A stretch of DNA of 60,118 nt, filler included, from Hausera hauseri (Eukaryota), in NCBI GenBank assembly GCA_046269625.1. It is 9 parts of 9 records of this genome, joined end to end, with 100 filler letters (N's around TTAATTAATTAA, not from the genome) between each part and the next. Parts side by side here need not be neighbours in the genome. Positions count along the whole stretch, not along the records: positions 45,138 to 52,604 come from JBJURY010013233.1; 8 more parts are not named here. One strand, 5' to 3'. The notes under the pieces were generated by a model, which saw only the letters and a program-made list of their open reading frames with translations, made no database searches and was not told the DNA's origin. Shown one piece after another: positions 1,415 to 60,118 of this stretch. A program made the position numbers and the translations under genes. Each line of letters begins with the position of its first letter. Positions within the stretch are counted from its first letter, which is position 1.

Positions 1415-4400
1415 GCTACAACTTCTTCCTTTCCATTTTTGTTAATATAGTGTAGTTGGCGTAACTTTGGTTACTTCGTACTGTCCTCTGCCTGTACGGG
1501 TCAGTTTTAATGAGTTGCCTTTTTTGGATACTGGATAATGCACGTAAACCCAATTTTATTGTTCTAAGTCATGCGGTTTCGCTTCCTTGTCACTGTTTTT
1601 TAACTGCTCCTGGTACTCTTGAGATAATTCCTTGACGATCTCCCAACACTTTCGCAATCGCGTTTCTAACACTTTTGCAAAATTTTGTTCTAAATCTTCG
1701 GGACTGACTGAGTGTGGCGTCATTCCTAGGTCCGTGGGCAACACGGATTCACGTCCATACATAATAAAGAATGGCGTAAATCCCGTAGCTGTATGTGGTG
1801 TGGTATTAATTGCAAATTGAGTTCCTTCTAAAAATTCGTCCCAGTCTTTTTGGTCCTTAGCCACTTCTGTCGACAGTATACGTATGACAGTAGCATTTAT
1901 CCGTTTGACCATTCCATTATACTGAGGATGATTTGCAGTAGTCGTTAGTCGTTCGATTTCAAATATATTGGTGATTTTCTCAATTAATTCACTTGGAAAA
2001 TTTCTTCCTCGATCTGTGAGTATCTGGTCTAGGACCCGTATCGGAAAATAATTCTTCTCACTACTATTTCTGCTAAAGTATCGGCCTTTTGATCGATTAA
2101 TGTTATCAACTCGACGAAATCAATAGACGTCAAAATATATTTATTGTTCTTGTGAGTCGTAGGAAGAGGTTCTATGATATCCATTGACATGGCTTGCATG
2201 GGCCTATCGGGTACATCAATTGGTTTTAACTCGGCCATGTAATTTTTCGTCTTATTTTGCTTAGTTGCGCATACTTCACAAGCATTTACTCAATTTTTCA
2301 CATCAATATAGATACGCGGCCAAAAGTATTTATTCATTATTCTTTCTAGTGTTTTCTTCTAGGACATATGTCCGGCTAAGTACGAGTCATGTTCTGACAT
2401 CAGCACTTCGGTTTGTAAGCCTTTTGAAATAACTATCAATTTCCTTCCTTTTCGCTCGTACTATAAAATATCTTCATCGCTCTTGTCGTTTAAAACGCAA
2501 TATTTATGTCCGTATTTGTGTAAATGTTTCTTTAGCTGTCGTCCTCTTGGTATGACATCCTTCTTAGCAAATTCTATAATCTGCTGGATGACCTTATCCT
2601 TTCTTTGTTCTGTTGAAATTTTAATGGCATTATCTGTCGCTAAAGCGCGTTGGCGGTCTATTATTTCTTCAAGATGACTCTTCCTCATTACAGTGATTGC
2701 GTTTGTTTTCGTCTTTAATCTCGATAGTGCATCTGCGTCTACATGTCTGTTTCCCGGCTTATATTGGAATTCAATATTATATCTCGATATTTCTTCGATC
2801 CATATATTGACTCTACATGTCGGGTTATTTGCTCGGCCTTTCAAGGTCGTAACGGCCTTGTGATCAGTGACGATTATGATTTTCTGCCCGTATACGTAAA
2901 AGTTGAAGTGGCGAAGTGCCTCTTTTACATCTAGAGTTTCCAATTCGGTAACAGAATAGTTTTTCTCGGCCTTCTTCAAGGAACGTTCTCCATAAGCAAT
3001 CGGGTGCTCTAATTCTTCATCTTCTCTTTTCTGTGCTAGTTCATAACCAATGCCTGCTTTACTGGCATCTGTCTTGATTATAAAAGGTAAGTTAAAATCT
3101 GGATACCGTAAAACGGGTTCGATTGTTAATATCTTTTTCATCTCATCAAAAGCTTTCTGTTCGACGTCCGTCCATTTCCATTTAATTCCTTTTTTAAGTA
3201 GACAGTATAAAGGTGCGTTTATCTTCGAATTATCCAGCACAGGTTGCGTAGTAACCGCATAACCCTAGCCAGTGCCTTAATTCTTTTTGGTTTTGTGGTT
3301 CCATGCAATCTGATATTTTATTTAATAACGATTTATCTGGTTTCGGTCCTCCTTCTCCAGCTATGTGGCCAAGGTAGGACACAGCATTCTGAGCCCATTT
3401 GCATTTTTTGGATTTAACTTTAATCCGGCTTGTTCCAGTCTCATCAGTGTGTGTCCCTTAAGTGTTCCTTTTCGGTCCTTGATGCTATCATTACGTCATC
3501 TAAGTACGCAAAATCATGATCCAATCCCATTTGCATTTTGTTCATCATTCTTGTAAATATGGCTGGTCCGGTAGTAATACCGAACGGCATGACGTTAAAT
3601 TTGTAAACATCATCGTGTGTTTTGTATGCTATCTTATAACGATCTTCATCTTCAATCTCTCCTTGCCAGTGTCCGGATTGAAATTCCAGAGTGGTAAACC
3701 ATTTGGCTCCTGAGAGTATGTCTAAAGCATCTTTTACTGACGGTAATGGAAAGGAATCTTTCATCATAAGGTTATTTAATGCTCTGTAGTCAATACAAAA
3801 TCGATGTTTTGTGGTCCCTTTCTTCTTAACCATGAGAATTGGTGAATACCAAGATCTATAGCTTGGCCTAATTATATCGGCCCTAAGCATTCGTTCGACT
3901 TCCTTCGTTATTTTGGGTCTCAGTGAATGTAGTGGGGCATACCATTTCGGCATCTTCTGGTCTTTTAAATCTATTTTCTCGTTCGATTCTGGCTTTTTCT
4001 TGAGTGGAATAGTTAGTTTTAATGCTTTCGCTCTACCGATATCTTATTCGTCCTTAGCAATACTCAATTTATATCGGCATAATAATTCGCAGAATCGAAA
4101 ATAATACTCAGGTGAAAACATAGTTTCGAAATGAGGTGAAAATTCGACATACTTGTAAGGCTTTTCTTCGATAGTTATTGACGATACTCTATACGTGTCT
4201 CCTAAAGTAGTATAAGCATGGAGCTTGACAGGAGTTTGCGCGTTTTCAGCTATTCTGATTGGTACTCGACCGGAGTGTACTCTTGTTAATACATTGCTGA
4301 GTAATATATTCGAATCTAACGTATCTCTTGGTTCAAAATATACTGGTTGATCGTCATCTTGCTGTATCTGGGCACAAATTATCATTTCTGTTCTTGGTGG

Positions 4401-4973
4401 AATGTCTTCATCTACGGGTATCCATACCTCTCCGAGTTTTCTATCCTTAGCGTTTTTCACACCTTTATTTGGCCTGATTTTTATTAGCTTCTCTGTTTGT
4501 AAATCAATTGTTATATTTGACAGTCTCTTCAGTAGATCACATCCTAAAACTACGTCATCAGTTAATTGTTCCATAACTGCAAACTCATGATGGAAAAATT
4601 TTCCAGCTATTTGAACTTCTGAGTTCCATTTAAATATTGGTTTTGATATTTGGCCAAAAGCTCCTGTACTTCCTGGATCCTTCGTAAAAGGCGGGTATAA
4701 TTGACCTCTCAGTGTTTGATGTATTGAATCATTTTTGATGTAAGACATCTCAGATCCTGTATCGATTAAGACATAAACTTCCCAATCTTCGATAGTGATT
4801 TTGGCGAAAGGTCTTCCTTCTATCGCTGTCCCGAAACAGTTTGGTGTATCCTTTGAGCGTTTCAGTGCCGATATTTTATGTCCATTGATTCGGGTTTCGG
4901 GTGAGGATACTATATTCTCCGATAGGTGTCTTAATTCTTCGTTTGGATATAATTCGTTATTTTCTATGTGCAA
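1415..4973 (-). mobile_element. pol: Degenerate Ty3/Gypsy pol (PR-RT-RNaseH-IN), lineage A
   Basis: Protease VLIDTGSEMSYI (4044-4973). RT RFCIDYRALN, VMPFG, AYLDD (3444-3953). RNase H KTDASKAGIG, VTDHKA, DADALSR (2461-3240). Integrase HHCC remnant, MSMDII, TTPHTATGFTPFFIMYGR and a GPY/F-like tail (about 1415-2400). Interrupted by stops and frameshifts. Confidence 0.93.
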
Positions 4974-4996
4974 CTCTTCCGCTTCGTGTGTACTAA

Positions 4997-6639
4997 TTAA
5001 TGGTTCTCGATTGTTAGTGTGTAATTATTCTGGAAGATTTTTAACCTTAAATTGTCCCAAACCGTTGATCTAGTTTCTATGTTCCGAGGTTCTCTCGGAG
5101 AATACAACATCTTTGGACCATCTGTGTATTGTCGGTAACACATTTTCCGTAGGATCCCGTAACGTTTCGTTCCTTCATAAGGATCTTTTACATTAATTGT
5201 TCTTTTATAGATTTCCGTCTGATATGAACTGATTGATCGTTTGTCACAGTCTTCATAAGTTGGAGCGGTGGAAGGTAACATAGGTAGTGGTGCTTTAATA
5301 ACAGAATACGCCTTATATTTATTTATTCCTGAAAGTACTTCTTCTCCCTTAGTCTCGTCATCATATGAATCGCTTCTTCGTGTCTTATGCTTTATAAACT
5401 TCCGCCTTCGCAAAAACATAGGTCTCCTTCTATCTTTACGGTTGTGATATCCGACGTGACGTTCTACGCCTGATATCCGTCTGTTTTCGTCGTATGCATT
5501 TAAGAATTTTCCAAAGGGTGTCATGATCGCAGTTAAAATCATGCAAGAAAATCCAGTTAACGTAAATATTTCATTCCCATTAATTACGGCTTGGATAACG
5601 GCCTTGATCATTTGTATCAGAACATATATAGCTAAGAATCCGGATGTGGTTTGTCCGAAAATTAAAAATCTTTCCCAAATTTTGTAGAGTATTTCTGTGG
5701 TTACTCGCTGATAATGATTTACGCCAAGTAGAGATTCCCATTTAGCCTGGTATAGTGTATCATCTACTACAGAAGCTATGGCTCGGTTTAATTAATGTGT
5801 TCGCTGTCTCGGAAAAGCGAGAAATTGTCTAAAAGCCTCAATTTCCTTCGGCCTGTATATACCTTTCGATGAAATATCTTGAAATTTATCGTCTGTAATT
5901 CCTTTTGCGAGATTTGTTCCTGTCAATTTATTTGGAACGGCAATAATACCTCCATTTGGCAAATTAATCCAGTCTGTTTCACTTTGTCTAAACATGGGTT
6001 CTCCTAGGCTTGCCTTACAATTCTTAAGGATAGACGGTTGGGTAGCGTTATGCAGTAATATTCTTGTTGGCGGTGTAGCTAATCTCGGAATATTTTGGTA
6101 AATAACGGGAAGTTCCTGAATGCAACGTTTTTCTTCCACGTTGATGGGTACATCTCTCTTTTCGCATTCATAGGTTAGCAATACTTCGCCCGTTACCCGA
6201 CCGAAAATTCCTTCTCTCATTGGAATTATTGGAAAAGCCAATTCTGGGTTTGCATATATCAGAGCCATTTTAGTTCTCATGATTTCAGTATCCAATTTGC
6301 AGTCATTCATTATCATCTTGTGATATAATTCCGTTATTCCAATTTGTACTTTATAGTAGAAGTAATCATCCTTACTTTTCAAGTAATCTTCGATACGTAC
6401 ATTTTGTGTTTCTAGATTATACGTTTTTGCACTTATTTACGTTTCTGCTACGAAAAACGCCTCACAGTTTGTAGCAAACATCACTACATCACAGCGAGAA
6501 ATCATCTCTTTTTTAATAAATTTCAATCCATGAAGATCCAAAATTAATATAGTAGGTGTAGAGTGTTTAGATACATCCTCGCGTGTCCTCGAATTGGTCT
6601 TTGATTTGTCCACATATCGCTTCCCTGTAGTCTCATTAA
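4997..6639 (-). pseudogene. Chuvirus-like (class III, gB-type) envelope glycoprotein, C-terminal part, truncated at contig end
   Basis: One frame with two internal TAA stops links 6639 to ORFs 5792-6382 and 4997-5611. Motifs NVRIEDYLKSKDDYFYY, NP...GIFGRVTGEVLLTYEC, CIQELPVIY, PPTRILL, KGIY, then KIWERFLIFGQTTSGFLAIYVLIQMIKAVIQAVING and a second hydrophobic stretch. Order and spacing match chuviral glycoproteins as I recall them. Confidence 0.75.
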
Positions 6640-16247: not shown

Positions 16248-16251
16248 AATA

Positions 16252-16287
<36 letters not shown>
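16248..16287. repeat. (AAT)n microsatellite in an AT-rich low-complexity tract
   Basis: Direct AAT tandem run. Confidence 0.9.
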
Positions 16288-16288
<1 letters not shown>

Positions 16289-16334
16289 TAATAAAAATAA
16301 TATAAAATTAAAATTTGAAAATTCAGATTCTGGC

Positions 16335-17038: not shown

Positions 17039-17866
17039 TCAGAAACGCCCAATAGAGAACATTGATTGTGGCTCTTTGGTAGTTGGACCTTTCTTACTAT
17101 GGAACTTTTGATTTGATGGTAAACGTGAAAAGAATGAGTGACTAAGTGCTTCGGCAAAAGTGATTCTTGATTTTGGATTATAGTCTAACATTCGAGAAAT
17201 TAGATCGAAAAGATCGATAGTGTCAACATTTTCGGGTTTACAGTAATTACCGAGTCTACTACAATTTTTTCTAACAAATTTAGCATTCTTTTCACTAGGA
17301 AACCAAAGTAGACTACCATCGTCATGAAAATAGCCCTTTAAAGTAGTTTTAGTCATTTTATACGGAATTCGGACAATTATTCGATTCATCATTGCCAGAT
17401 GTTCGCGGTTGTCGTGAGCCTGGAATAAAGTATGACCCGTAAATAATTCAAATAGTATACAGCCAATTGAACAGACATCACATGGTTGATACCAGCCTAA
17501 TTCAAGTATAACTTCCAGAGAACAATAATGTCTGGTTGACACAACACTTGAATGTTTTTCATGATTGAATGTTTCCGAACCAAAGTTGATCCAACGGATT
17601 TCTGATGATTTTACCACATTATACTGTTTGGATTTTGACGACGAAATAGCATTGTAATCAGAATTGACAAACAAAATATTTTCCGGTTTTAGATCAGTAT
17701 TGGTTAGATTATTTTCGTGTAGGAAATTTACAGCTAAACACGTCTGATATCCGATGTGACGAACATGTTCAATGGGATAAGGAATATAATTATTTTCTTT
17801 TAAAACGGTAGATACACTGAGACCGAGTAGTTGAAAGGAAATACATATATGTCCATTGTAATTGAA
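17039..17866 (-). CDS. CLK: CLK/LAMMER dual-specificity kinase, C-terminal part, with altered catalytic motifs
   Basis: Open frame from the contig end: FNYNGHICISFQLLGLS...NTDLKPENILF...INFGS...STRHYCSLEVILELGW...HDNREHLAMMNRI. Confidence 0.88.
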   Translation of the reverse strand, partial: FNYNGHICISFQLLGLSVSTVLKENNYIPYPIEHVRHIGYQTCLAVNFLHENNLTNTDLKPENILFVNSDYNAISSSKSKQYNVVKSSEIRWINFGSETFNHEKHSSVVSTRHYCSLEVILELGWYQPCDVCSIGCILFELFTGHTLFQAHDNREHLAMMNRIIVRIPYKMTKTTLKGYFHDDGSLLWFPSEKNAKFVRKNCSRLGNYCKPENVDTIDLFDLISRMLDYNPKSRITFAEALSHSFFSRLPSNQKFHSKKGPTTKEPQSMFSIGRF

Positions 17867-17984
17867 NNNNNNNNNNNNNNNNNNNNNNNNNNNNNNNNNN
17901 NNNNNNNNNNTTAATTAATTAANNNNNNNNNNNNNNNNNNNNNNNNNNNNNNNNNNNNNNNNNNNNAATTATAATGATTACCCC

Positions 17985-22967: not shown

Positions 22968-23067
22968 NNNNNNNNNNNNNNNNNNNNNNNNNNNNNNNNN
23001 NNNNNNNNNNNTTAATTAATTAANNNNNNNNNNNNNNNNNNNNNNNNNNNNNNNNNNNNNNNNNNNN

Positions 23068-23194
23068 CCCAAAAACAATTTCCGTTTTCCGTGCGTGGGT
23101 GTTCATTTACGGTTTTTCCGTAGTTACTGGTAGTTTATTGATGTATCTTTCTTCTTATGGTGTTTTCTGCAGTTGCGGTCTTTACTCTACGACA
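23068..23194 (-). repeat. 3' LTR (partial), preceded by PPT at about 23199-23209
   Basis: 23068-23142 matches 29968-30042 with 4 mismatches in 75 nt. Minus strand reads GGGAAAAGGGC-GTGC-TGTCG. Confidence 0.8.
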
Positions 23195-32160: not shown

Positions 32161-33176
32161 CCCTTTAGCTGAGCAAAAATCCAAAGAAAATGTGCTAATT
32201 TTGTGACATAACAAGTCAAATTATGTGTATTATGCCAAGTTTCTAAAATACAAATATATTATCTTTGACTTTTTGTACTTCATGGATATGCATGTCACAG
32301 GTGCTTTAATGTTTCCATTCTGTTGGGAGTCATTCTTGAATCAAAATCTGTTTATTATTAATTAACTGAGTCGTTGAGCACTTTTCATAAAACCACACGT
32401 TCATTGTTTACATTGAATTTAGTTCAATAAATGTTTTTGTTTTGATTTAAAACATCTGCATCAGACTCTTCTGAGGTAGAATTTGGTTACCATGGAAGTC
32501 ATCAGTGCATCAATTCATTTCCTGAAACGATTCAAAACACCTCTGAACCTACAGGAGACAGTCTGACCAACACAGTAAGTCAAAGAGTTTTTCTATAACT
32601 TTTCTTTAACTCTTCTACTTTTATTTAGTTCACACAAGTGTTTTATTATCAGAGGAAGGTTTACATTGAAGTGATACTGATATAGTCTGTAAATGTTCTG
32701 TCATTTTTATTTTTTTACATTTTCCTAGTTAGAATATGTTTTAACTTGATTTTTCTGTAATTGGGTGTTTTATTGTAGAAATGATTCCTGACAATGTTTT
32801 TATTTGTCAGAGCTGACTGAGAAAACTGGAGAAGTTTCAGCTCATGGATGTGAAGAACAGCACCATGGAGTTAGAGTTATCACCAGCGGTAAGTTAGCAT
32901 AGCTTTTAGCTACCCTGAAGAAAGTTTATACTGGTTGCTAGGTAACAGAAAAGGCATTCAAAACAAATGGTAAAGACTTTTTAGAAACTTGAATTTCCGT
33001 CTGTTAAAAAATAAGTAATATTATGATAACAGGCAAAAATGTGTGATATTTCTGAGCTGTTATTTCAGAGAAACAAAACAGGCTGATGTTAATTTAAAAA
33101 ATAGATATGGAGCTTTTAGTCAAGTCCCATTTTCCTTTAGGAAGCAGTTGCCTTCTTGGATTTCTGAACCTGATTT

Positions 33177-33554
33177 TTGCCTCTTTTTTGTATGTTTGCC
33201 ATTGAAAAGACTTGTAAAGTCAAAGAAGAACCTGAAGAACCTGATGGTTATTGGTTTGTCCAGGAGCCACCGGTTGAACCAATCAACACTCCAGTTAAAC
33301 CTGAGTGCAGCGACCAGAGTGAAGCCTGTGTTGGAGATCCAAGGGATTTACAACTACATCAAGTTAAACCCAACCACACTGATGGAAAAAAGTTCATCTG
33401 CATCCAGTGTGACAAGAGATTCATCAGTCCAAGTCATCTGAAGGTTCACCTTCATGTTCACACTGGAGAGAGGCCTTACAGCTGTACCCAGTGTGAGAAG
33501 AGATTCACACAGTCAGGAAGTTTAAAATCACATCAGCTAGTTCACTCTGGATAA
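33177..33554 (+). pseudogene. C2H2 (Kruppel-type) zinc-finger gene, terminal exon, probably truncated
   Basis: [54 protein letters not shown], with TAA in place of the linker Glu. Candidate upstream exons at about 32464-32575 and 32811-32888 end at GTAAG. Confidence 0.85.
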
Positions 33555-36500: not shown

Positions 36501-39500
36501 CCATGTGCTACATAATATAATTAACATCTGTAGTAATATAACAGATGCATGCAGTGCAATAACTGTAATGACCATTAATTAAATGTCAAATTCACCGTAG
36601 GGAATATCAATCAATTGGCAATGTCCAGAAATTTAATTAATGGATATTCGTTTTGTCCATTAATTGGTAAGATAATGTCAATAAATTGGTTGTGTCCATT
36701 AATTGGACAATCAATCAATAGTCCATTAATTGGAGAATCAATCAGACTGGTAAAATATTGTTCGGTCGATCTGCCTTTTATGGACGGTCAGTGGCTATTT
36801 TCTCCTTTTTTCTTATACCCAAAAAGGGAAAGCCTTGCTTTCTCTATCTCTTCCTCTGTTGTTTTCTTCTCCGGTTGATTTTTCGAGTTATGACTCTTCG
36901 AAATTTGTGGTTTCCATTTGTAATCCCATTGTAGAGAAATGTAAATATCCCTTACATATTTCGCCCCTTGGACGCGGTTAGTAGCTTAGGTGAACGGAAA
37001 TAGTTACCATTCATCGCTTCTAGAATCATTTTAAATCAGGATTCTTGTGAAGCTGGAGGGAATGAACATCCTCTCTTTTCATTAAAACGTTCTCTGTATT
37101 GCTTATAACAGTTGGATTTCAACTCAATTCTCCAATTCCAGTTATGTATTCTTATCGTATTCCTAATTTATCCAGTATCTCATGCATTCTACCCTGCTAC
37201 GATGTATCCTTAGAGGCAGCGACGTTCATCCTCTTGTGTTTCAAGAAACTCTTTACCTTTCTTCCAATTGTACCTTTATGAATCTGGTAATATCGGGAAA
37301 ATATCTTTCACTTTGGCTCTGTGTGCAATTATTTTTTTCATTAGTTTTCTCCTTTTAGACTTCTTATGGAGATTTATATTGGCGTGTACCATCTTCTTTC
37401 TCCGTAGTTTATTTTTGGAATTCTAACAACTCTACATTTGTTCTATGTAGTCCTCCGAAGGTCTGTAAACATAAGATTGGTCGTAGAGGTTTCATTATTT
37501 CGGTAAGAAAGATTAATTCAATAATGATCTTCGGTGGAATATCGGCAATTCCAAATTATAGGGTGTAATCCATGAGACAAGAACAACACAAGTCATATAT
37601 ACTAAATATCCATTGTTGATAAATTTGGGTATTCCAAAACTGTACCGCGATTGTATACTGGATTCTACCGTCTGCTATATGTATGTATATCTGCTGGAAT
37701 GTTGGTTCATAGGGGATTAAGTTCTTCAACGGTTCGTACATCCTTCGTGTCTCGCAAAACATATTAGAGAGTTGTCCGACTTTCTTCTAAACTCCGTTTT
37801 AATCCATTCGGTATTTTACTTTCTTGGTCTATTTCTACACGTCTTATATTTCACATTCTCTCCAATCTGGCGATCTGGAAGGTTTAAAGACTGTAATGTG
37901 TTGCTGTAGGAAGTCATTTATATCGTGTCTGGAACTCTGATATGGAATTTCCGCTGTTTACTTATACTTATACTTCTAAAATAAAAACATAGGTTAACTT
38001 TAAGACAAATCATCGTTTCAAAGCAAAATATTTTGTCTGATTATAGGATAACCAGATCTTTAATTATTAGGTTATTCTCGGTACCCTTCTCCAGTGTATG
38101 TTCCTGTTTATTTTTACGTCGGTCATAACAATTTGTGGAAACTAAGACAATTGTCACCGCTATTATGATGAGAACATACGGTGACAGATCAGAATTGATA
38201 TTATCGGTAAGTTTGTTGGCTCAGTTGCATTTTCCGTAGTACTTTTGTTTTCGGTACTGGTATCTTTATATTCTATGGCTAGAATTTTGTTTAAAATTCA
38301 TAGTGCTAAAGTTTTGTCTTTCGCCCTATGCAGAAACTTGAATTACATAGTCGTGTTGTGGTTGTAGTAGTTTACATTCGGTTTCCTGATTACTCTTTAA
38401 CATAACCATTTGATTAGTATGTAAGTTACGACATTCAATTTTAATACCGTAGTTTAATTTCTATTCAAGGAAAAGCAATTTTATACTGGTCCATCAAATA
38501 CTTTACAGGTATACTCTATAATTATTTTTAGGCATTTTACTCCAAGTGACGATATTAGTAAGAGTACTTCAGATGATAGTCGGTTTTTTTGTAGTTACTT
38601 CATAAGGAATTTTCCATATTCTAACTTCATCAACTGGATAATAGGTTTGTAGGAGAATGCTTGATTTACTAGGTCGGATATGAAAGAGGTCGAATTGTAT
38701 TTTATATTCGTGACCGATCGGTAGTTTCAAACATGGATTTTGTCTTTTGGATCTGACAGAATAATATTTCGCTGCGGAACTTGTCTTCTTTATTGGTACA
38801 AATTGAGTGGAAATTTGTCTATCACTGGCTAGCACAATTCTAGTTTTTATCTGGATATATTTGTCTTTGTTAATTTTTGAAATTTCAACAATATTATCGT
38901 CCAAAATTTGCTTTTGAGTTTCGGTAGTTTGGATCATTTTCTCTAATGTTATCTCTTTGGCCCGACTAGGAACTGGTATAGTTATTTTTAACTAAGAATC
39001 TAGTTTGGCTTTGTCTACGCTCGATTCCTGATAATACATTCGAAAGATGTATGTATATGAGTTTCCGCAGCTTATCTCGCAGCACTGTTGAAAATCTTCC
39101 GGGAAAAATTGTAATTTTGAGTTGTTTTTGGCCTTATTTCGAATCTCTTTTTGGAAAACTGAAGTCTACGAGTAGTTTCACTGCCCTAAATCCGACATAT
39201 TTGCTTTCTGAATCGTATAGTAAGGTTTAATGGTCNNNNNNNNNNNNNNNNNNNNNNNNNNNNNNNNNNNNNNNNNNNNTTAATTAATTAANNNNNNNNN
39301 NNNNNNNNNNNNNNNNNNNNNNNNNNNNNNNNNNNGGAAGTATAGAGCAAAAAAGCTACGATATGTTAGAAAATAATAAAATTTTTTGGTGCGGATAATT
39401 TTGTCAAATAACATTTTGAAGCACCAACGAAACAGGGTTACGATTTTCGTATTTTTTGGTATGATTAATTACGTATAAGAATCAGACTACTATATATACT

Positions 39501-40689: not shown

Positions 40690-41030
40690 GGAACCTTGCG
40701 CGGTGTTGTGTTATTACCGGATAAAAAACATTTTACGTCGTCAAGAACGCATGGTATTTTACAAGTTTGGAGCATACAGAATAGTAAGAGCATATCCTCG
40801 GTTGACGTTAGTCCAAATGCAACCCTCGTAGATACTTCACCACTCTAATATTCTAACAGTTGATTTAGAAAATGGATGCTTATGTATATAGGATATTAGA
40901 AACGCAACAAAACCTTTAACGGTACACGACATAAAATGGCATGAAGGCCCAATAGTACGAATTCAATTTGACGAGCATGGACGCAGTTTAGCAATTGGGT
41001 CTAACAACAGTTACATATTTTGTAGCATCG
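40690..41030 (+). pseudogene. WD40-repeat fragment
   Basis: LRGVVLLPDKKHFTSSRTHGILQVWSI, then after a frameshift LENGCLCI*DIRN...WHEGPIVRIQFDEHGRSLAIGSNN. Confidence 0.65.
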
Positions 41031-42424
41031 CCCCGTATAAACTCACTTTTCAGGCGTACTACGTCCAGATTACGAATACCCATGTAAGTCACATTACATT
41101 CAATGTGACCAATATTATTGTTACCAAAATGAACGACTCACAAATACATACAGTACTCGTTGGATTAATGAATGGTTCAGATCAGAACCTAACACTACCA
41201 CGTTTTAAAGGAAATTATAAAACAACGTCACAATTATATTTAAAATACACGTCTGTAGTTACTACCTCATGCAATAATTTGATGATCGCTTTATCGAATG
41301 ACCCCAAACATGAAAATGGAGGATCTGGATACAATTTTGTCTTTACAACGCTGAGTCCTATCGTGACTATTGACGAGTTACCAACAAATCTATGGTCAAC
41401 CAGTGAAACTCATTTAGAACTCATTACAATGGTACACAGATTTTACGATTGCGGCCATGTAATAAAATCTGGTGCTCACGGAGTAATACATGCCGTCATA
41501 TACAGTACTGAATTTTTCAATTTTGCCAGAGATCATATGTCACCCGGTATATATTGTCAAGATCTTCAACGAGAACTTTATTTACGAAACTTTATCTACG
41601 AAACTCCGAATTTCCCACGATTTATTTTCTTTAATGATTTGGATAAANNNNNNNNNNATTCTCCCTCAACTTCGGATTACGTTGGCTAGCTTTAACATAA
41701 TCCTTTACTCATGCGACGTCGGTTGTGTAGACAAACCAATTCGATTAAGTCTCAAATTTCATTTTTTTACCTAGGAAATCAACAAAATCTCCTTTTTCTA
41801 TTTTACATATTTCTCATGAACTCCAAAATATTCAAGATTTAAGGCATGTTATTCACGTTGTAAGCACTGAAGATACCAGAGCCCTTAATTGGTATTACAT
41901 TGACTCATCACCTGATCAGGTAATTAACACAATTAATAATGCGGAGCTCCATTTAACTTCTGACATTTGTTTACTTATCTTTCCACCACACAACAGCCGA
42001 TCTCCAGATTAACCATCTATACGGAAGCTTTAATAAAATAGAAAACAATACTCTTATTTTTCTCGGTGGTAGATCTCCACACTTCGAAACAAATAGCTAT
42101 GCATTTCCGTCGCATTTTGCACAGGAATTAAAATCATACATTTGGTTCTCGGCATATAAAGAAATTCCTTTTGAAGCAGATTCCACTGTACCGATTTGAC
42201 AATCGCGATACGTGTGTGCTCGTTGTTGGACACGCAAAATATTACAGTTGTTTCTCTACCGAGGCTGTATAACAAAAGAGATCACACGAAATATTTTAGG
42301 ATCCGTTTCAAACGTAATATCAAACTACAATTACCAGTTAGATCTTTAAAAAGAAACAGAAATTCTCTTAACATCGATCAACCGCATTAAAATACTACAC
42401 TACCCGGTTTACATTATATCACCA

Positions 42425-45037: not shown

Positions 45038-45305
45038 NNNNNNNNNNNNNNNNNNNNNNNNNNNNNNNNNNNNNNNNNNNNTTAATTAATTAANNNNNNN
45101 NNNNNNNNNNNNNNNNNNNNNNNNNNNNNNNNNNNNNACCGAAGAAGAATCTACAGATAAACCTGGTGTCATAGCAGCTATATGGAGTATTACAGAACAA
45201 GAAAAGTCATTACTGCAAAAACAACAAAATGACGAACAAATTAAACAAATTAAGGAGTATTTAAAAAGGAAAACGATACCAAGTGATATTAATCTCTATA
45301 CTCAT

Positions 45306-47792
45306 TTGAAACAGTTTGCTGAAAATTATGAAATAAAAGATGATATATTACATTACAATCATAAAGGAAGATTAGTCATAGTTGTCCCTCAAGAAGATAT
45401 AAAGTTGTTATTAACACAATATCATGATGGCATGATGGGAGGTCATCAATCAGTAAAAAGGACTTTAGGAAGATTGAAAAGAAAATATTATTGGTACACT
45501 ATGACTAAAGATGTTCAAGATTGGTGCAAGAGTTGCCCAATTTGTGCCACCAGAAAGAATACGGGTTCAAAAATTAAAGTTCCCCTTAAACCATTAGAAT
45601 GTCCACCAGCCCCAATGGAATTCTCAGCTATGGACATTCTGGGGCCATTACCTATGACAATGAATGGAAATAAGTATATGTTAGTGTTTGTCGACCTATT
45701 TTCCAGATGGCCAGTTGTGATACCGATACCAGACCAGAAAGCTCAGACTATCGCGCAAGCCTTTGTCGAAGAAATTGTTTTTAATTATGGAGCGCCGACA
45801 AAATTGCTAACAGACCAAGCACCAAACTTCAGGGGAGAAGTTATGGCGGAAATATCAAAAATATTTCAGATACTACAATTGAAAACTACCCCATACCATC
45901 CTCAAACAAACGGAGCAGTGAAAAGATTTAATGGAATCTTGACTAATATGCTAGCTACTATGGTCAATGAACGACAAGATGATTGGGACGAGTATATTAA
46001 ACCATGTTTGTTTGCAATTAGAAATACAATTCACCCGGCAACAAAAGAAACACCTTTCTATTTGATGTATCTTAGAGATACTCATATGCCGATTGATTTG
46101 GATTTCAAAATGCCCGTCTCCCATTTAAAAGACATGGAATACAAAGAATTACTAGAGGAAAAATTAGGATATGTATGGGATTTAGCCTCACGTCATATAA
46201 AGATATGTCAAAAAGAATATAAAGAACGCTATGATGAAAAAGCTAAACCACATGACTTTAAACCTGGAGACAAGGTCATGTTGCATACACCTTTGAGTAA
46301 AAAGGGAAGGACACCAAAATTAGACAGACCATACAAAGGTCCATATATGGTTCAAAAAGTAGACGAAACTAACATCTACTTAAATAAAAATAAAAGAAAT
46401 AAAATTGATCCCATAAAAGTCCATGCAAATAGATGTAAGCTAGCACCAACGGATTCAAAAATAAGAAATGGAAATTCTAATCTATTACTGATAGCAATGC
46501 TTATGATGTTAAGTCTAGTAACTTGCGTATCAGCTCAGACCCTCGATGTGAAATATAAAGCCATACAAGTTGGAAAATATCCTTGCATAAAAATCACGGC
46601 TAATCGGAATTTAACAACAGATGAATATATACATATATTCATATCGAAATTACCCGTAGTAGAGAAAGCAACACCAGAGAACTGCGATTTATATTACGAT
46701 CATTCAGTACGTGTTTGCTGTGGGCTCTCATTCGGAGAAACTTATAGAATCCAATATGCAATTGGAAAAAGTGATCACAGCTACAGAACATATTTTTCAT
46801 TTCCTGGCATTACGCACTATTTTCATCGGCCATACTTTCTTATTTCATTTTACACCAAGGTCATGAAAAATGGACCTTGTGTAACAGCGGAACCCGATGT
46901 TGCAATCACGAGACACGTTACATTTAAATACATAGTATTTGATGGTATAAATAGCATTCATTGTAAACCAACTTATCAAAACCCATATATGTGCTGTCCT
47001 ATTGTTTTTGACAAGGAGTATACGATATATTATTGGACCACGTATAACGGTTATACATGGTCAAAAACTTCGGATGGTCCAGAGATAATAGTAAGATCTC
47101 CAGCCAAAAAAATTATAATTTCAACAAAGAAAACAACTACCTCGATGACATCATCTAATATAGTAACTAGTCCAACAATAGAAAAGAAAGTTGTTAAGGA
47201 ATTAGACATAATTATCCAACCAACAACTCATTCATTAATTATTACAGTAACAGATCTAAAAATGTCGAATATAAAATTTGAGTGTTATCTTAATCATAAA
47301 ATAGCCAGTGAAGGAGTATTGACCCCGGATGAACCAACATCCTCCTGTATGTTCTTGGAGGCCGATACCAGTTATCAGATTATTATAACAGAGCTAGACG
47401 AAGACGGACAAGTCCTACAAGTTCTCAAAAGGAAAGAGAAAACGTTGAAATTACCTACGACTGTAACAAAAAGAGTCATGAAAATGAGTACAGTACAAAA
47501 ATCTAAAGAAATTTCGAACGGACATCTTTGGATAATTAGTATATTATGTATTTCCTTAATATTACTGGTCATACTATTACCCTTAACAATTTACTGTTTA
47601 AGAATAAGACGGCGACAACGTAAAGTAAGGGAAATGTTAAATCATTTAAAAATGTTAAGAGAAAACTCCAAAGACTCTTTAGTAAATGTAAGTGCGCCAT
47701 TTTTAAAAAATCAACGGCAAGCTAAAGAGATTACCGATCAAGAGCGCGAAATCCACCGCTTAAAGACACAACCGTTTGTCTATGCACACTAA
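45306..47792 (+). CDS. Gypsy integrase fused to a type I membrane protein (internal signal peptide, three FN3-like repeats, TM)
   Basis: HHCC, AMDILGP, LTDQAPNF, NGAVKRFN, KGPY. Then LLLIAMLMMLSLVTCVSA (about 46482-46535), repeats ending GLSFGETYRIQY / PIVFDKEYTIYY / FLEADTSYQIII, a Thr/Ser linker, TM LWIISILCISLILLVILLPLTIYCL (about 47526-47600) and RIRRRQRK. Confidence 0.85.
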   Translation: MKQFAENYEIKDDILHYNHKGRLVIVVPQEDIKLLLTQYHDGMMGGHQSVKRTLGRLKRKYYWYTMTKDVQDWCKSCPICATRKNTGSKIKVPLKPLECPPAPMEFSAMDILGPLPMTMNGNKYMLVFVDLFSRWPVVIPIPDQKAQTIAQAFVEEIVFNYGAPTKLLTDQAPNFRGEVMAEISKIFQILQLKTTPYHPQTNGAVKRFNGILTNMLATMVNERQDDWDEYIKPCLFAIRNTIHPATKETPFYLMYLRDTHMPIDLDFKMPVSHLKDMEYKELLEEKLGYVWDLASRHIKICQKEYKERYDEKAKPHDFKPGDKVMLHTPLSKKGRTPKLDRPYKGPYMVQKVDETNIYLNKNKRNKIDPIKVHANRCKLAPTDSKIRNGNSNLLLIAMLMMLSLVTCVSAQTLDVKYKAIQVGKYPCIKITANRNLTTDEYIHIFISKLPVVEKATPENCDLYYDHSVRVCCGLSFGETYRIQYAIGKSDHSYRTYFSFPGITHYFHRPYFLISFYTKVMKNGPCVTAEPDVAITRHVTFKYIVFDGINSIHCKPTYQNPYMCCPIVFDKEYTIYYWTTYNGYTWSKTSDGPEIIVRSPAKKIIISTKKTTTSMTSSNIVTSPTIEKKVVKELDIIIQPTTHSLIITVTDLKMSNIKFECYLNHKIASEGVLTPDEPTSSCMFLEADTSYQIIITELDEDGQVLQVLKRKEKTLKLPTTVTKRVMKMSTVQKSKEISNGHLWIISILCISLILLVILLPLTIYCLRIRRRQRKVREMLNHLKMLRENSKDSLVNVSAPFLKNQRQAKEITDQEREIHRLKTQPFVYAH

Positions 47793-47890
47793 TACATGAT
47801 AAAGCCGCAAAATTTTTAGCGACCTATGTAAAGAATAAACAATCAAAATATGACAATATCCTGTCATTTAAAACCGCTTGGCTAACGCTA

Positions 47891-49204
47891 ATGTTTTTAC
47901 TTTTAGTCCAAGAATGTGCAGAACGTACAGAAAGGCCCAATTCCTTCTATAACCATATTATATCTAATCTATGGGCCACTTCCTGCAAAGATTATTGCTA
48001 TTATGGAAAGGCTGTTTTCATTCCTAACAACCTTAAAGGATATTCAGTCCAACAAAGAAGTAGTCTTATAGTCAAATTGCGACAAAACTCAACCAATCTC
48101 TCAGATCTAATAGATATTTCTGAATATACGTATGCCGTATATATTTCAGTCGCAAAAGGAACCATCCAACTTAAGAGCAAATCACATACCCAAGGAATCA
48201 CTGATGTAATGGAAATCCTAAACCGGATAACAGTCCGATTAGATCCTCGATTGTATATTAACGCCACCATCACTATACGAACATGTGAAGGACCATTTCC
48301 TATAATTTATGTGGAAGTAATCAAAAAGGATCAAACACCGCGTTTGGATTACCAAATCCCAAAGTTTACAACCCCCAGACCCAGAGAAATTGACGTAGCG
48401 GAAGGACTGTCATTTACAAGAAGACCAATAATGTCAAAAGAAGAGTTGATAATAATGGCTGTGAATCCAATATATTTATTCACCCCAATCAGGAATACAG
48501 AAACAACCATTGCTGAAATAACCTTAATGAAATTAGATGGTGAAATTATTGTGGACGAAATTTTATGTCCTAGAGAGAAAATCGATAATTATAATAGCCA
48601 TGTGACCGGACTAAAAGAAGACCATATTGTTGGGAAGAGGGATTCTTATTATGCAGAACCTTTTCTAAGAAAAATGATTGTTGGGAAAGTGATTGTAGGA
48701 ATTGATGTTTATCACACCTTTGCCACCACTTTCAGATATGACTACAATAACCTATTGGGGATTAGAGAACTTCTATACCATAATAATGTCAACCCACAAC
48801 GAAAATACACAGCCAAACAAATCCTTACCCAATATAATGGTAATATATATCCTCAAAGGACTCGGGAAAAAGCCCTGACTATATTGAAGATTTATAATTC
48901 GATTCCTGAATACCAGAATGAACAATTTGAAAAACTAACAAGTTCAGAAGAACCAATGGATATACAATCAATTTCCGATTATCCAAATTCATCAAATTCG
49001 ATAATGTCAACCCTACCTATTAACGATCCAAAGCCTATTCAGTTGATAAAAGATTGTTCTATTAATCTTGAACCACTAAAATCAGCTAGTTCTATCGAAT
49101 CTATTGTCGTCGATCTTACAAAGACAAAAAAGAAAAGGACCCCAAAAACCGAAACAATCACCTTAAAAAAACATCAAAAAGAAAGGACGCTTATTACATA
49201 TTAG
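47891..49204 (+). CDS. Accessory ORF with REX4/ISG20-like DEDDh exonuclease fold, catalytic residues apparently lost
   Basis: IAEITLMKLDGEIIVDEILCPREKIDNYNSHVTGLKEDHI...FLRKMIVGKVIVGID resembles LARVSLVD..G..LYD.YVKP...V.DY.T.VSGI...HL...L.GKILVGH. The expected DxE position reads MAVNP. Confidence 0.65.
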   Translation: MFLLLVQECAERTERPNSFYNHIISNLWATSCKDYCYYGKAVFIPNNLKGYSVQQRSSLIVKLRQNSTNLSDLIDISEYTYAVYISVAKGTIQLKSKSHTQGITDVMEILNRITVRLDPRLYINATITIRTCEGPFPIIYVEVIKKDQTPRLDYQIPKFTTPRPREIDVAEGLSFTRRPIMSKEELIIMAVNPIYLFTPIRNTETTIAEITLMKLDGEIIVDEILCPREKIDNYNSHVTGLKEDHIVGKRDSYYAEPFLRKMIVGKVIVGIDVYHTFATTFRYDYNNLLGIRELLYHNNVNPQRKYTAKQILTQYNGNIYPQRTREKALTILKIYNSIPEYQNEQFEKLTSSEEPMDIQSISDYPNSSNSIMSTLPINDPKPIQLIKDCSINLEPLKSASSIESIVVDLTKTKKKRTPKTETITLKKHQKERTLITY

Positions 49205-50091
49205 ATCTGTCCTATAACACTTTGACTGTTCTATGGTACTTTTAGACTGTTCTATGGAACTTTTAGACTATTCTATGGCACTTCCAGACTGTTCTATGAC
49301 ACTTTTAGACTTCTCTATCGCACTTTTAGACTTCTCTATGGCACTTTTAGACTGTTCTATAACACTTTGACTGTTCTATGGCACTTTTACACTGTTTATG
49401 ACACTTTTAAACTGTTCTATGGTACTTTTAGACTGTTCTATGGCACTTTTAGACTGTTCTATGGCACTTCCAGACTGTTCTATGACACTTTTAGACTGTT
49501 CTATGGCACTTTTAGACTGTTCTATGGCACTTCCAGACTGTTCTATGACACTTTTAGACTTCTCTANNNNNNNNNNNNNNNNNNNNNNNNNNNNNNNNNN
49601 NNNNNNNNNNNNNNNNNNNNNNNNNNNNNNNNNNNNNNNNNNNNNNNNNNNNNNNNNNNNNNNNNNCACTTCCAGACTGTTCTATGACACTTTTAGACTT
49701 CTCTATCGCACTTTTAGACTTCTCTATGGCACTTTTAGACTGTCCTATAACACTTTGACTGTTCTATGGCACTTTTAGACTGTTCTATGGCACTTTTAGA
49801 CTGTTCTATGACACTTTTAGACTGTTCTGTGACACTTTTAGACTTCTCTATGGCACTTTTAAACTGTCCTATAACACTTTGACTATTCTATGGCACTTTT
49901 AGACTGTTCTATGGCACTTTAGACTGTTCTATGGCACTTTTAGACTGTTCTATGACACTTTTAGACTGTTCTATGACACTTTTAGACTTCTCTATGGCAC
50001 TTTTAGGCGGTCCTATAACACTTTGACTGTTCTATGGCACTTTTAGACTGTTTTATGGCACTTTTAGACTGTTCTATGGCACTTGAAGACA
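49201..50091 (+). repeat. 21-bp tandem repeat array (consensus GACTGTTCTATGGCACTTTTA) with recurring 19-bp variant; contains a 100-N gap
   Basis: Directly visible. Variants include TATGACAC, CTTCTCTAT, CTTCCAGA and 19-bp GACTGTCCTATAACACTTT. Confidence 0.95.
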
Positions 50092-51024
50092 TTTCATTTG
50101 CACTTTTTCAATCCTGTATGAATCTTTTAGACTTATTTATAGCATTTTAAACGTTTCAAGAGATACGGGAGATATACCAACAGTAATCAGTCTAAACGTC
50201 TTATAATGGTACCAAGTAATGGTGAAAGAATGTCTAAGTGTTATAGAAGTGGTTTCAAATAACGGCATACAAGTAATGTCAAAGAACAGTCTAAATGTCA
50301 TGCCTAACAACGTACTATAGTTACAACGGAGAGCAGAGGTTTCGTGTAGGACTGCAAAAGTCCTTAAATGTTAATGTACACTTATTTTGACGGGGGCAAT
50401 AATGCATATGTACAAATATATCTGCAAAAATCCTTTGGTACCCGCAAAATCATTATTATTATTTTCATAATTAATCCAAACCAAATTTACTCACCATTCC
50501 TTCACGAATTTGAATTTTATTTTTCAAAGGACTCAAAACCTGAATCGGTTTCTTATAGTTATCCGACTGAATCAGAGAAACCGGCCGCCATCCAATCGGT
50601 GCTCGAACCATATAGATCGTATATGATTTATACGGCATTGAACTGTAAAGACAAATGAATCCCGATTCAACATAACCCGGTTTTTTCACACCGAGTAACA
50701 CGACTGTTCCGTTGGGATGTTTGAAAAAATCGAAATAATCACTGAGCGGAGTGAATTTCCTAGCTGCCGGATCACTGACAACACGATAACACGAACTTCC
50801 GCTGCTAACACCGGGACAAAGTGACCATAAAAATGGTGAAAGTAAATTCTGATCGGCCCATCTTGGCAAAAGTGATTTAAAATCGCCGGTCATTTTTCCG
50901 CAATCCAAAGAAACAGGGAAATCATCAGTTTTGATATCTTCCATCGGAATTGGTTCATCGTTATTTGACAACGGAGAAATGAAACTCGATAATTCTTAAA
51001 GTGGAGAATTATAATGCGAGAAAG

Positions 51025-56900: not shown

Positions 56901-58299
56901 TCGCTGCATAAAAGTGCAGATTTTAACAGAAATACTGCAGAGGCGGTGTTGAAACGGCCCGAAGATTGAGCGATATTGCCTGCGCCAGAATGTGTCATAA
57001 CATCTGGCGGCATTATTAGTTTTTTGGTGGATTTGGAGGAAAGGAAGAAGAGGAAGAAAAGCTAGGAGATTTTTTGTTATAATGTATACAACCAGGCACA
57101 CATGATCTGGCCTGTGACTGATATTTGTTGTGGTATATACAAATAGAGTTATTTACAGCGTATCACTCACTAAAGAATCGACAGCCCAAGAAACATTTCC
57201 TTGCTTCCTTTCAAAAACGCATGTGGTAGAAACAAGTCATGCGTTCGCCAGGTGAAATGGACCGAGAAGAGTGCATTGAAATGCTTCGCTTTCGTGAACG
57301 TCTGGTTTCACTTCGTTGAGGCCCATTAAGACTACTTAGTTGGCTAGTAATGACCAAGATCGATTGTTGTAGCATGTCAAACTGTTGCTGCATCATTTGC
57401 AACTGTTGAGTAAAGAGTGTCGTATCTGTAGTTGGAGCACACGTGGTTGCAGCAGCAACAGGGAGAGAACTGTTAGTATGAAGAATCTCAAAAGATTTGT
57501 CAGCCATTAATACCAGTTTTTCAATTGCAGTGGATTCGTCAACAACGGTCAGCAAGGCTCTGATTGAGGTGGGCAAAGACGATAAGAAATAACGGCGAAT
57601 TAAATCCGCGTTATTCGTAGGGGTCACTCCTAGCGCGCTGAGCTGTAGAATGGCTGTTTGGAGAAAGTCGGGTGGCTTTTGGTTCCCTATTGCGTGTAAA
57701 TTAAAATACTTTTGTATTATGTTGTCAATCGATGGATCCGTGACATGCAGTACAGCTTCGCAGAGTGTCTCGTAAGGCGTAGGGGATTGTAGCAGCTCGA
57801 AAATATTATTAATTTGCTGCTTGACGTTGGCAGGAATAAGAATTAAAAGGCTATTGACTCGCACAAAAGAATCTGTAATGTTGTTCGATTTTAGCCACTG
57901 CTGGTAAAATTGGAGCCATGGCTTGCGGGAGTTGTTTTTATCAAGGAAGAATTTAACACAAGGTAAATTTAACGAACCTCGTGACTGTTGGGAGTGTGGC
58001 AAACGATATATGTTGCCTGTATTCGTAAATTTATCATCCTAGCAGGATGAATTTGTATCCGATCCACCCCGGAGGCGAAATTTGAGCATAAGATGGATAA
58101 CTGAACGTTCATGGCATACGAAAGACAAAAGTGAGTCGGCGGCATGTACAGTGATACATTAATGTGTGAAATAGAAATTGGCAGTGTCGAGTGAGGAGGA
58201 TAGAGAGGTGTACAGTAGTTGCGCCGTGAAATTGAGTGGAGCCTTAATGGTAGTTATGTGTTTATTGTTATTGAAGATAAGGAAGGAGAGTTGTACGGA
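53950..58299 (-). mobile_element. CsRn1-like Gypsy copy 3 (UBL-gag, -1 frameshift, PR-RT-RH-IN), degenerate
   Basis: Gag about 57016-58062 (KPWLQFYQQWL, DLIRRYFLSSLP, CFYHMRF). AAAAAAC at 57019-57025. Protease FLIDSGAAFSLLP. RT HPYIDD. RNase H TTDAS, TDHKP. Integrase HLDLVGP, YHPQANGLLERFH. Confidence 0.93.
58063..58299 (-). pseudogene. Ubiquitin-like domain ending FRLRGG, in frame with Gag
   Basis: SVQLSFLIFNNNKHITTIKAPLNFTAQLLYTSLSSSLDTANFYFTH*CITVHAADSLLSFVCHERSVIHLMLKFRLRGG|SD. Same frame as ORFs 58159-59013 and 57211-58002. Confidence 0.75.
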
Positions 58300-59320
58300 A
58301 GCAATACCAGGAGAATGGTAAAATTCAAAAGAAGCTTGTGCGGTTTGCTTCCGTGTTAACAAGAGATATGGGCGTGCAGCCGGGATAACGGTGGCAAACG
58401 ATGGTTTGAACGTATGAAACAGATGAACACTAGTAATTACTTGGATAGTAGTCCCCACAAGGCATCCCATTCTTTTGTCTCTGAATCTACTTGATTGTGT
58501 TTCATGTCGGAAAAAGATGTGCGACAGCATAAATGTACAATGGCTTATCCAATCGTCAGTCGTTTGACGTAATGCAGTAAATGTATTTTGGTAAATGTGG
58601 ACTTGTTCAGTAATCGACTTGACGTGTATTACGAGAAAGCCGCTACACCTTTCCACGTGGAATAGCATTATCGGATTGCAAGTTTGGTGTTTCATTATAA
58701 TGTCTTTAAACAATTGTTTCTGTTTCAAAACTGTTGACATGCGCATGGATGTGGTGAGGACGCTGATATTTTTTACTAATTTAGTCGCAAAATAGCGAAA
58801 ATTCACACAAAAACTACTATCGTGAATACACGACAAAATAAGGTCTTGTATTTGAGGAATATGGTGACAAAGTGAAATTCTTATTAGTTTATATTGACCT
58901 GTTGACATGCTATCTGTGTAGGAGTATTTTGACTCAGATGCATAGGTTGCAATTGCGCTGCTCTCAGTTTTCAGATTAGATTTTGACACAACCACTTTAA
59001 CACCATGCAGCATATTCGGTCTATTTGTGTTCAGTCAGAACAATGTAATAGAAATCTGGATGTCTGTGTTGTTCTGATTCTACAGGTGCATCCCATTGGT
59101 AAGTCGAATGCTGTACACCTATACTAGAAAAGTTCGCAAATGAAGGGACATTAGACACAAATAATTTGGTCTTTATCAGCGGTCGTTTTAAGTTAACATA
59201 CATTTGCTGATCATCAGAGAGCAATTCTATATCATCTGGGGAATTCTGGTGAATTGGTGTCGAGTAAATGGTCACGATTTTTTGCAGTGTCTCTTCAGAT
59301 TGTCGTTTGCGATTGAACAA
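58159..59320 (-). CDS. Unknown leader ORFs upstream of UBL-Gag
   Basis: ORF 58159-59013 (284 aa) is in frame with UBL-Gag. ORF 59021-59320 is in frame with 59351-60115. No recognisable motif. Confidence 0.45.
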
Positions 59321-59350
59321 AACTGAAAGATTAATTTGTACAAGCCAACA

Positions 59351-60115
59351 CTAATTTGGAGTAGGAGCAGTGTCAGAAGTTGTAGATTTGTCATAAATTT
59401 TGTAATTCATACACAATGACCTGTACAGATAAAATTTAAGAGCATCACCTGGGCCGTACCTTATCAGTTCATCTAATGTTACCTCGTACAGTCGACCTTG
59501 TAAATGTTGTGGAAGCTTTGGCAAAACACTTCCAGGTGTAATCGGTGTGAAGTTTTTGAGCAATTTTTTAAACAGCTTTTTTGCTAAATTTCTCTCAGTT
59601 CCTTCATATCCAGAAACCGTTGTCGAGACAAACACAAACCTAGAGAAATAACGAGGATACCTATTGGTAATATGCAATGGAATGGCCGCTGCTTCATCAA
59701 TACACAACAGATCACAAACCAACGACTCTGTTTCCGATGGTTCAACATAACGTATAACTTGAGAAAGTTTCCCTCGTTTTAATTCGAGTTTCGTTAGGAC
59801 TTTTGTCTTATTATCAAATTGTGATGTCTTATTTTCGTAATAAACGTGTTCTGAATATACGAAAGCCTTCGATCCCAATTTCACATACTGCGATAACGTA
59901 ATAATGTTTGTTGGACTAAAACCCAACAAACCGTCACTGAACGACGTTTTCATAACGGGCCAACATAAGTCACTTACTAACTTTCGATAGTTTAAGTCTC
60001 CTTTAAAAATTACTAACGACGTCCGTTTGAGATTGTCGTACCAATCTGGACAGATCGATATCATTTTATGGAACGGATGAGATAAAGTTAAAAATATGAG
60101 GTTGAACCGACACAT
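59351..60115 (-). CDS. Chimeric ORF: ARMT1/DUF89 C-terminal fragment fused to NAT10/TmcA helicase-domain fragment
   Basis: SLVIFKGDLNYRKLVSDLCW...F.P is the ARMT1-like motif. QVIRYVEP...LLCIDEAAAIPL...VFVSTTVSGYEGTERNLAKKL...RLYEVTLDELIRYGPGDAL...LC is NAT10-like. No introns. Confidence 0.8.
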   Translation of the reverse strand: MCRFNLIFLTLSHPFHKMISICPDWYDNLKRTSLVIFKGDLNYRKLVSDLCWPVMKTSFSDGLLGFSPTNIITLSQYVKLGSKAFVYSEHVYYENKTSQFDNKTKVLTKLELKRGKLSQVIRYVEPSETESLVCDLLCIDEAAAIPLHITNRYPRYFSRFVFVSTTVSGYEGTERNLAKKLFKKLLKNFTPITPGSVLPKLPQHLQGRLYEVTLDELIRYGPGDALKFYLYRSLCMNYKIYDKSTTSDTAPTPN

Positions 60116-60118
60116 TTC

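Follow-up and report, generated by a model that had tools for sequence, protein, structure and literature searches.

Results

An open frame runs from a Ty3/gypsy integrase into a predicted membrane protein

The window, that is, the whole stretch of 60,118 nucleotides analyzed from the Hausera hauseri assembly GCA_046269625.1, is composed of short contigs chained by 100-base spacers. The locus under study lies on the contig at 45138-52604 and comprises a truncated integrase, a tail in the same frame with the features of a membrane protein, an overlapping second open reading frame (ORF2), and a tandem array (Table 1). The frame of ORF1 extends over 45090-47792 on the plus strand and is free of stops until the terminal stop codon at 47790-47792. 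Because the first 16 codons of this frame are assembly spacer, ORF1 has 884 real codons, and it begins at the contig edge, at 45138, without a true start codon. The unbroken 828-residue ORF given in the preliminary description is open as stated; that length is the count from an internal TTG at 45306. A reverse transcriptase fragment located before the spacer belongs to another contig.

Membership of Ty3/gypsy is indicated by an H2C2 finger, an rve core, and a GPY/F region, all present in ORF1. The likeness to database integrases stops near 46443 (residue 434), and the 442 codons past the integrase are all open, an outcome with a chance of about 1e-15 at the same composition; over this stretch, the other two plus-strand frames contain 51 and 24 stops. 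None of the integrase relatives in databases (n = 21) covers more than 48% of the ORF1 query, and none of the metagenome loci compared (n = 8) matches the tail or ORF2. Since its integrase lacks one catalytic-triad residue, this copy is probably inactive, though its frame is open.

Table 1. Coordinates, strand, and supporting evidence for the features of the ORF1 locus and its relatives in the window
Feature	Position	Strand	Evidence
Ty3/gypsy integrase, 5' end cut by contig edge	45138..46449	+	Pfam, alignment, sequence
H2C2 zinc finger of integrase	45384-45560	+	Pfam Integrase_H2C2, E 1e-20
Integrase core	45609-45902	+	Pfam rve, E 4e-13
GPY/F region of integrase	to ~46449	+	database integrase alignment reaches query residue 434
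Internal in-frame signal-peptide-like segment	46450..46535	+	hydropathy; synonymous excess
Ectodomain domain 1, four Cys, FN3-like pattern GLSFGETYRIQY	46536..46829	+	Pfam Fn3_Dep-1_3rd, E 0.056; synonymous excess
Ectodomain domain 2, four Cys, spacing like domain 1	46830..47111	+	alignment to domain 1
Lys/Thr/Ser-rich linker	47112..47189	+	sequence
Ectodomain domain 3, Ig-like beta-sandwich, probably FN3 (FLEADTSYQIII)	47190..47471	+	AlphaFold2, fold searches
Single predicted TM helix	47508..47597	+	hydropathy peak 3.0; helical, block pLDDT 80-92 in whole-tail model
Basic stop-transfer and predicted cytoplasmic tail of ~64 residues, then stop	47598..47792	+	sequence
ORF2, 492 codons, overlaps ORF1 end in -1 frame	47726..49204	+	repeated in both runs
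ISG20-like (DEDDh) exonuclease fold within ORF2	48497-48727	+	phmmer
21-base tandem array, end of repeated DNA	49201..50084	+	depth 7-56 from 50120 on in X1
Decayed distant relative of whole tail, other contig, many stops	38062..39234	-	colinear alignment, shuffle p ~0.01
Decayed env-pol element: gB/class III-type env, protease, RT, RNase H, integrase	1430..6436	-	Pfam PF24664, E 4e-24 and 8e-15

Kyte-Doolittle hydropathy exceeds 1.5 in only two segments, at 46470-46550 (peak 2.2) and 47508-47612. The first has a basic n-region, a hydrophobic h-region, and a C-V-S-A|Q end fitting the -3/-1 rule, with cleavage predicted; the second is directly followed by RIRRRQRK. The ectodomain spans 330 residues in three small repeats and contains one N-glycosylation sequon, with cysteines at C499/C532/C543-544 in domain 1, C597/C625/C635-636 in domain 2, and C732/C753 in domain 3. 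Domains 1 and 2 align with a weak score (shuffle p = 0.03), and domain 3 shows no significant alignment to either (p = 0.14 and 0.95). Accordingly, the layout first proposed (signal peptide, Cys-patterned repeats, linker, third repeat, TM helix, and stop-transfer) stands in its order and Cys pattern, as judged from hydropathy and sequence, whereas its third domain was not recovered as a repeat of the first two. The tail is best read as a predicted type I membrane protein fused behind the integrase.

The fusion is a trait of a large, highly repeated family

The stretch is covered by two public runs. Summed contig depth in X1, which is not a copy number, ranged from 13,750 to 27,023 in the integrase and from 2,721 to 8,981 in the ectodomain; it was 629 at the TM segment, 194-1,211 in ORF2, and 7-56 in the flank. 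Contigs of diverged copies run into the thousands at a depth far above that of the flank, and ORF1 belongs to a large, highly repeated Ty3/gypsy family. Because depth drops towards the TM segment, a part of the copies may end early or have diverged further. The integrase/signal junction at 46465 is bridged by four of the 16 contigs listed, each reaching at least 31 letters to either side, with 24/125, 12/113, 11/100, and 1/111 differences and no gaps; three of them are 11-19% diverged. No indel or joint at a 4% share was found at the junction among those listed. As 46320-46408 is masked as repeat, the evidence for bridging comes from the last strand of the integrase region. Depth is locally lower at 46476-46501, and some contigs drop out of the alignment there. 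One of the contigs listed carries 4 gap letters within domain 1, and the linker shows an in-frame 3-base length variant in other copies.

In the signal and the first half of domain 1, the listed differences among copies are predominantly synonymous. In a test drawing on 40 of 65 difference rows, with non-independent sites and covering the signal and the first half of domain 1, 24 of 34 differences were synonymous, where 10.2 would be expected from substitutions of the same types (p = 1e-6). No difference introduced a stop. The excess appears both in the signal segment (10/15 listed differences, 5.3 expected) and in the first half of domain 1 (14/19 listed, 5.4 expected), and both are under purifying selection. 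A wider copy comparison, with 40 rows listed and 838 more, gave 4/12 synonymous differences in the tail versus 10/13 in the integrase among the rows listed; these rows include many sites at which nearly all other copies differ from this one. GC3 is 0.29 in the tail and 0.28 in the integrase. Copies differ at the first Met of the signal, and a start at one of the later Mets would leave 10-11 residues only, which argues against a separate start at the signal. The fusion, initially read from a single copy, thus recurs in diverged bridging contigs with a synonymous excess and no listed stop, and is confirmed as a family trait.

Domain 3 is predicted to be an Ig-like sandwich

Modeled from its single sequence, the whole tail yielded no usable AlphaFold2 structure (pLDDT 41), and this model was set aside for fold searching. 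Domain 3 alone reached a pLDDT of 76, with seven strands and an additional N-terminal one. In Foldseek, its top matches were POLDIP2 and SoxYZ rather than FN3; FN3 or FN3-scaffold chains made up 26 of the 44 rows listed, with FN3 TM-scores of 0.40-0.52, monobody and Tencon chains being counted as FN3. VIA-align placed a non-FN3 Ig-like DUF3244 protein first (Z 8.4) and aligned fibronectin over 80 residues (Z 7.9, rmsd 2.6). The top viral fold match was a phage FN3 protein, and two weak BFVD rows were RNA-virus proteins, one of them named a glycoprotein (E 0.006-0.01). In the ESM Atlas, the ten best named matches of the whole ectodomain all belonged to the FN3 family or clan (0.85-0.88, with scores below 0.9 and low recognition, 1670), and those of domains 1-2 were weaker (0.80-0.83) and mostly unnamed.

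The FN3 fold is typically marked by a B-strand Trp and an L-x-P-x-T-x-Y tyrosine corner. A tyrosine-corner-like motif occurs in domains 1 and 3, and the Trp is absent. In Pfam, the tail gave no match to PF00041 (fn3), and Fn3_Dep-1_3rd scored only E 0.056. Taken as models, these results support an Ig-like sandwich for domain 3, which is likely to be FN3, although other Ig-like folds score as well. Domains 1 and 2 may be called FN3-like by their pattern, with no confident fold model.

No class I or class III fusogen profile in Pfam matched the tail at E values up to 1-10, and the same scan returned PF24664 with an E value of 4e-24 on the env of another contig. Hydropathy disclosed no third hydrophobic segment of the kind expected for a fusion peptide, and no furin-type site was seen in the ectodomain sequence. 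A signal-like segment, an ectodomain, and a C-terminal TM segment are present by hydropathy, as in errantivirus Env. The proposal of a receptor-like ectodomain rather than a fusogen is partly supported: domain 3 is predicted to be Ig-like and probably FN3, and the tail matches no known fusogen family, whereas domains 1-2 gave no confident fold.

A decayed, probable tail relative and a gB env-pol element with a sister integrase lie in the same window

Searches for tail homologues returned none among 3793 candidates, no match in metagenome and viral contigs, and nothing below E 0.36 among PDB sequences. Against 1.84 billion representatives, there was no true homologue; the two matches, a Sushi array and a bacterial repeat protein, were rejected as repeat artefacts, and NCBIfam matches were at chance level only. 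Within the window, the decayed frame at 38062-39234 keeps the layout of three domains, linker, and TM segment with weak similarity, aligned with X at stops and giving the same p value with or without the TM segment. This modest alignment suggests an old, diversified tail gene family in the host genome. The DNA behind this relative has no significant match to ORF2 (p 0.15-0.42), and the 5' end of its frame runs off the contig. A relation of the tail to the signal-cassette ORF at 19417-21993 or to the tail of P0014 was considered and rejected, as no relation was found. P0014 (labelled conifer) continues at residues 1077-1495 from an integrase through a hydrophobic signal-like segment into a 400-residue tail with an RKKR site, and this tail has no Pfam env match.

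The decayed env-pol element carries its env upstream of the protease, RT, RNase H, and integrase. The noted likeness of the ORF1 integrase to that at 1415-2400 is real: the AKPHD...SKKG..KL similarity extends over the integrase at 1430-2610 with 37% identity in two pieces. As the window is a chain of spacer-joined contigs, that integrase belongs to a different contig and element. In a small tree of 22 rows (five window integrases and 17 of the 21 database relatives), the ORF1 integrase and that of the gB env-pol element form a sister pair with 98/98 support, the bootstrap being unsettled, and 38% identity. The gB env-pol element breaks off right after the GPY/F region into the gag of another family, and the ORF1 copy lacks its 5' half, so that no single element with both proteins was seen. 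Of the idea that one lineage carries both a fusogen and an attachment protein, the sister integrases bear out the kinship, and an element carrying both is missing from the window.

ORF2 resembles a non-catalytic ISG20-type exonuclease

ORF2 matched ISG20 (E 5e-6) and ISG20L2 (E 9e-5) in phmmer, with no Pfam match, and none of 5394 candidates was a homologue. With the D-E-D-D-h positions placed according to the family layout, catalytic acids are absent at the two motifs examined: the Exo II Asp aligns with Thr, and the strand expected to hold Exo I has no acidic residue. The first 55 codons of ORF2 precede its first ATG. A TTTAAAA slippery heptamer at 47702 was ruled out as the entry to ORF2 in this copy, because a stop follows in that frame. 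Among the indel rows listed (12 of 21), those that change the frame in coding DNA are confined to the ORF1/ORF2 overlap and the final codons of ORF2, so the boundary between the two frames may differ among copies. No LTR was seen after the 21-base array, and the only purine run of 10 or more sits in the low-depth flank; this copy may be truncated. Apparent degenerate reverse-complement copies of the 21-base unit follow the array at ~50180-50320. Elsewhere in the window, the exonuclease part of ORF2 has a weak pairwise alignment (E 0.006) to 58159-59034.

Other features of the window

Two long ORFs at 17967-21993 (+) each contain a paired signal-like/TM-like cassette and a degenerate protease-like stretch. 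An intronless, degenerate protein kinase fragment lies at 17039-17866 (-) (Pfam Pkinase, E 2e-27), with CLK-like motifs. Host-like gene fragments are found upstream of gag in gypsy relics at 58159-60118 (-) and 40892-41689 (+), WD40-like and presumably ARMT1-like and NAT10-like. The contig at 30143-34786 holds CA microsatellites and a C2H2 zinc-finger ORF (33174-33554); these look fish-like, and the contig is possibly DNA of a second organism.

Discussion

The tail of ORF1 is best read as a type I membrane protein linked to Pol, an adhesin or attachment protein that matches no known fusogen family. An ectodomain of FN3-like units arrayed in tandem on a stalk points to binding more than to fusion, and we consider it about evenly balanced whether this conserved integrase extension is an attachment or adhesion protein for spread of the element between cells, likely freed by signal peptidase. 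It would then help particles of the element, or cells, to adhere to their targets. By analogy with single-frame Gag-Pol-Env elements, Pol would be translated through the integrase into the internal signal, which would target the ribosome to the ER; the ectodomain would be translocated and anchored, and host signal peptidase would cut the membrane protein from Pol. The integrase would stay tethered by the signal remnant until the protease of the element or signal-peptide peptidase freed it, and the surface protein would be made one-to-one with Pol. The most speculative step is that this protein might cooperate with a gB-type fusogen from its own lineage, which would be either a product of the 5' half absent from this copy or provided in trans. 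Many class III fusogens work without a partner. A bolder version, which we regard as unlikely, is a Ty3/gypsy lineage with herpesvirus-like two-protein entry, in which a gB-type fusogen upstream of pol and an FN3-repeat receptor-binder behind the integrase would both be cut from one polyprotein by signal peptidase, and some copies may run on into the dead exonuclease. Such run-on copies may encode a membrane receptor with an RNA-binding cytoplasmic domain.

The same protein and processing could instead serve a host-side role: the protein might act as a decoy receptor, exclude related elements, or be a surface antigen if the host is a parasite. This reading is somewhat unlikely but the most probable of the alternatives. 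The receptor-like layout with its long cytoplasmic tail would suit such a role, and the adjoining non-catalytic ISG20-like ORF suggests counter-defence cargo. Further, FN3 surface antigens are known and expanded in parasitic flatworms (PMC2671473; bioRxiv 2024.02.05.578899), and Burro elements carry host-modulating domains (PMC6431247). However, homologue searches gave no sequence link to cytokine receptors or antigens, the tested region is under purifying rather than diversifying selection, and the premise of a parasitic flatworm leans on the env-pol order.

Genes located after pol are usually expressed by splicing, and the Drosophila gypsy env is made from a spliced subgenomic RNA. The membrane protein could likewise come mainly from such an RNA, even though the frame shared with Pol is real. 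Selection would equally maintain the frame if a splice acceptor lay upstream of the signal, and the integrase would escape its membrane tether. Nevertheless, spliced env genes usually lie behind the pol stop, and no stop separates integrase from signal either in the window or among the listed differences of other copies; moreover, the stretch before the signal is A-rich with no visible pyrimidine tract, which makes this route rather improbable.

It appears very unlikely that the tail represents an env with a fusogen of unrecognised type or a class II-like protein in reduced form. Its env position, signal, Cys-bonded ectodomain, and C-terminal TM segment are what such a protein would have, and the weak BFVD rows and the lack of a confident model for domains 1-2 leave room for it. 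Against this stand the Pfam scan, which recognized a fusogen on the other element and none here, and an ectodomain of three short repeats with a lone sequon and neither a fusion-peptide segment nor a furin-type site. Lastly, an origin of the tail as a captured host retrocopy without function, or as a chimeric join, which the fragmented assembly might invite, is barely credible given the high depth, the integrase-like codon-position GC, and the old relative at 38062-39234, and is already largely refuted by the bridging contigs in two runs and the synonymous excess.

Chary and Hayashi, in the available part of their paper, class errantivirus env as F-type or gB-type only, describe flatworm GAG-ENV-POL elements with gB-type env, and report the env-before-pol order from nematodes, bryozoans, and flatworms only (PMC13524379). 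The words 'fibronectin' and 'immunoglobulin' do not occur in its main text, and the entry mechanism of gB-carrying errantiviruses is stated there to be unknown, since herpes gB needs gD, gH, and gL. ORF1 shares with errantiviruses, as described there, a Ty3/gypsy integrase and a signal-ectodomain-TM gene, and its sister integrase sits on a gB-type env-pol element; in contrast, its tail matches neither the F-type nor the gB-type and is fused behind the integrase. Atlas virus and hookworm belpaoviruses likewise place a membrane glycoprotein in frame behind Pol, in a single Gag-Pol-Env, and pair a receptor-binding GN with a fusogenic GC (bioRxiv 10.1101/2021.11.23.469668). Those are belpaoviruses with a phlebovirus-like class II fusogen as cargo, whereas ORF1 is Ty3/gypsy with small FN3-like repeats.

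The planarian gypsy giants Burro/GYPSM1 offer a further parallel, with a polyprotein, an in-frame env between gag and pol, host-like domains, and tandem repeats; their accessories comprise AIR1, Smc, MATH, BIR, BCL2, ankyrin, SUMO-like, and dUTPase domains, and the sections consulted describe no FN3 or post-integrase membrane protein (PMC6431247). In rotifer Vesta/Juno elements, pol is likewise followed by ORFs for non-fusogen TM proteins and for exonucleases, but in the portions available the ORF3s are separate, 210-230 aa long, and without FN3, and the exonucleases are of the DEDDy type with intact residues (PMC5408684). By comparison, ORF2 here is ISG20-like without catalytic residues, and the TM protein and the exonuclease-like ORF occur together. 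The EG95/45W antigens of cestodes, which are parasitic flatworms, likewise join a signal peptide, FN3, and a membrane anchor; they are likened here by description only and are intron-containing host genes with a GPI anchor that are not retrotransposon-borne (PMC2671473). In-frame Pol-Env, env inside a flatworm polyprotein, and TM or exonuclease ORF3s are already known. No FN3-like receptor cargo was found in the open-access literature; Repbase and the supplement of PMC13524379 may list such elements.

Membrane genes of animal LTR retrotransposons have either been assigned to the virus-derived fusogens or not been assigned at all. With a receptor-like FN3 protein that is under selection and fused to the integrase, this set widens to cellular-type surface proteins. 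The entry question for gB errantiviruses becomes testable, because the ORF1 tail offers a concrete candidate for the partner within a lineage that bears gB, and the layout predicts that the integrase is at first held in the ER membrane. Should the host be a parasitic flatworm, a highly repeated element might display its own protein on the parasite surface.
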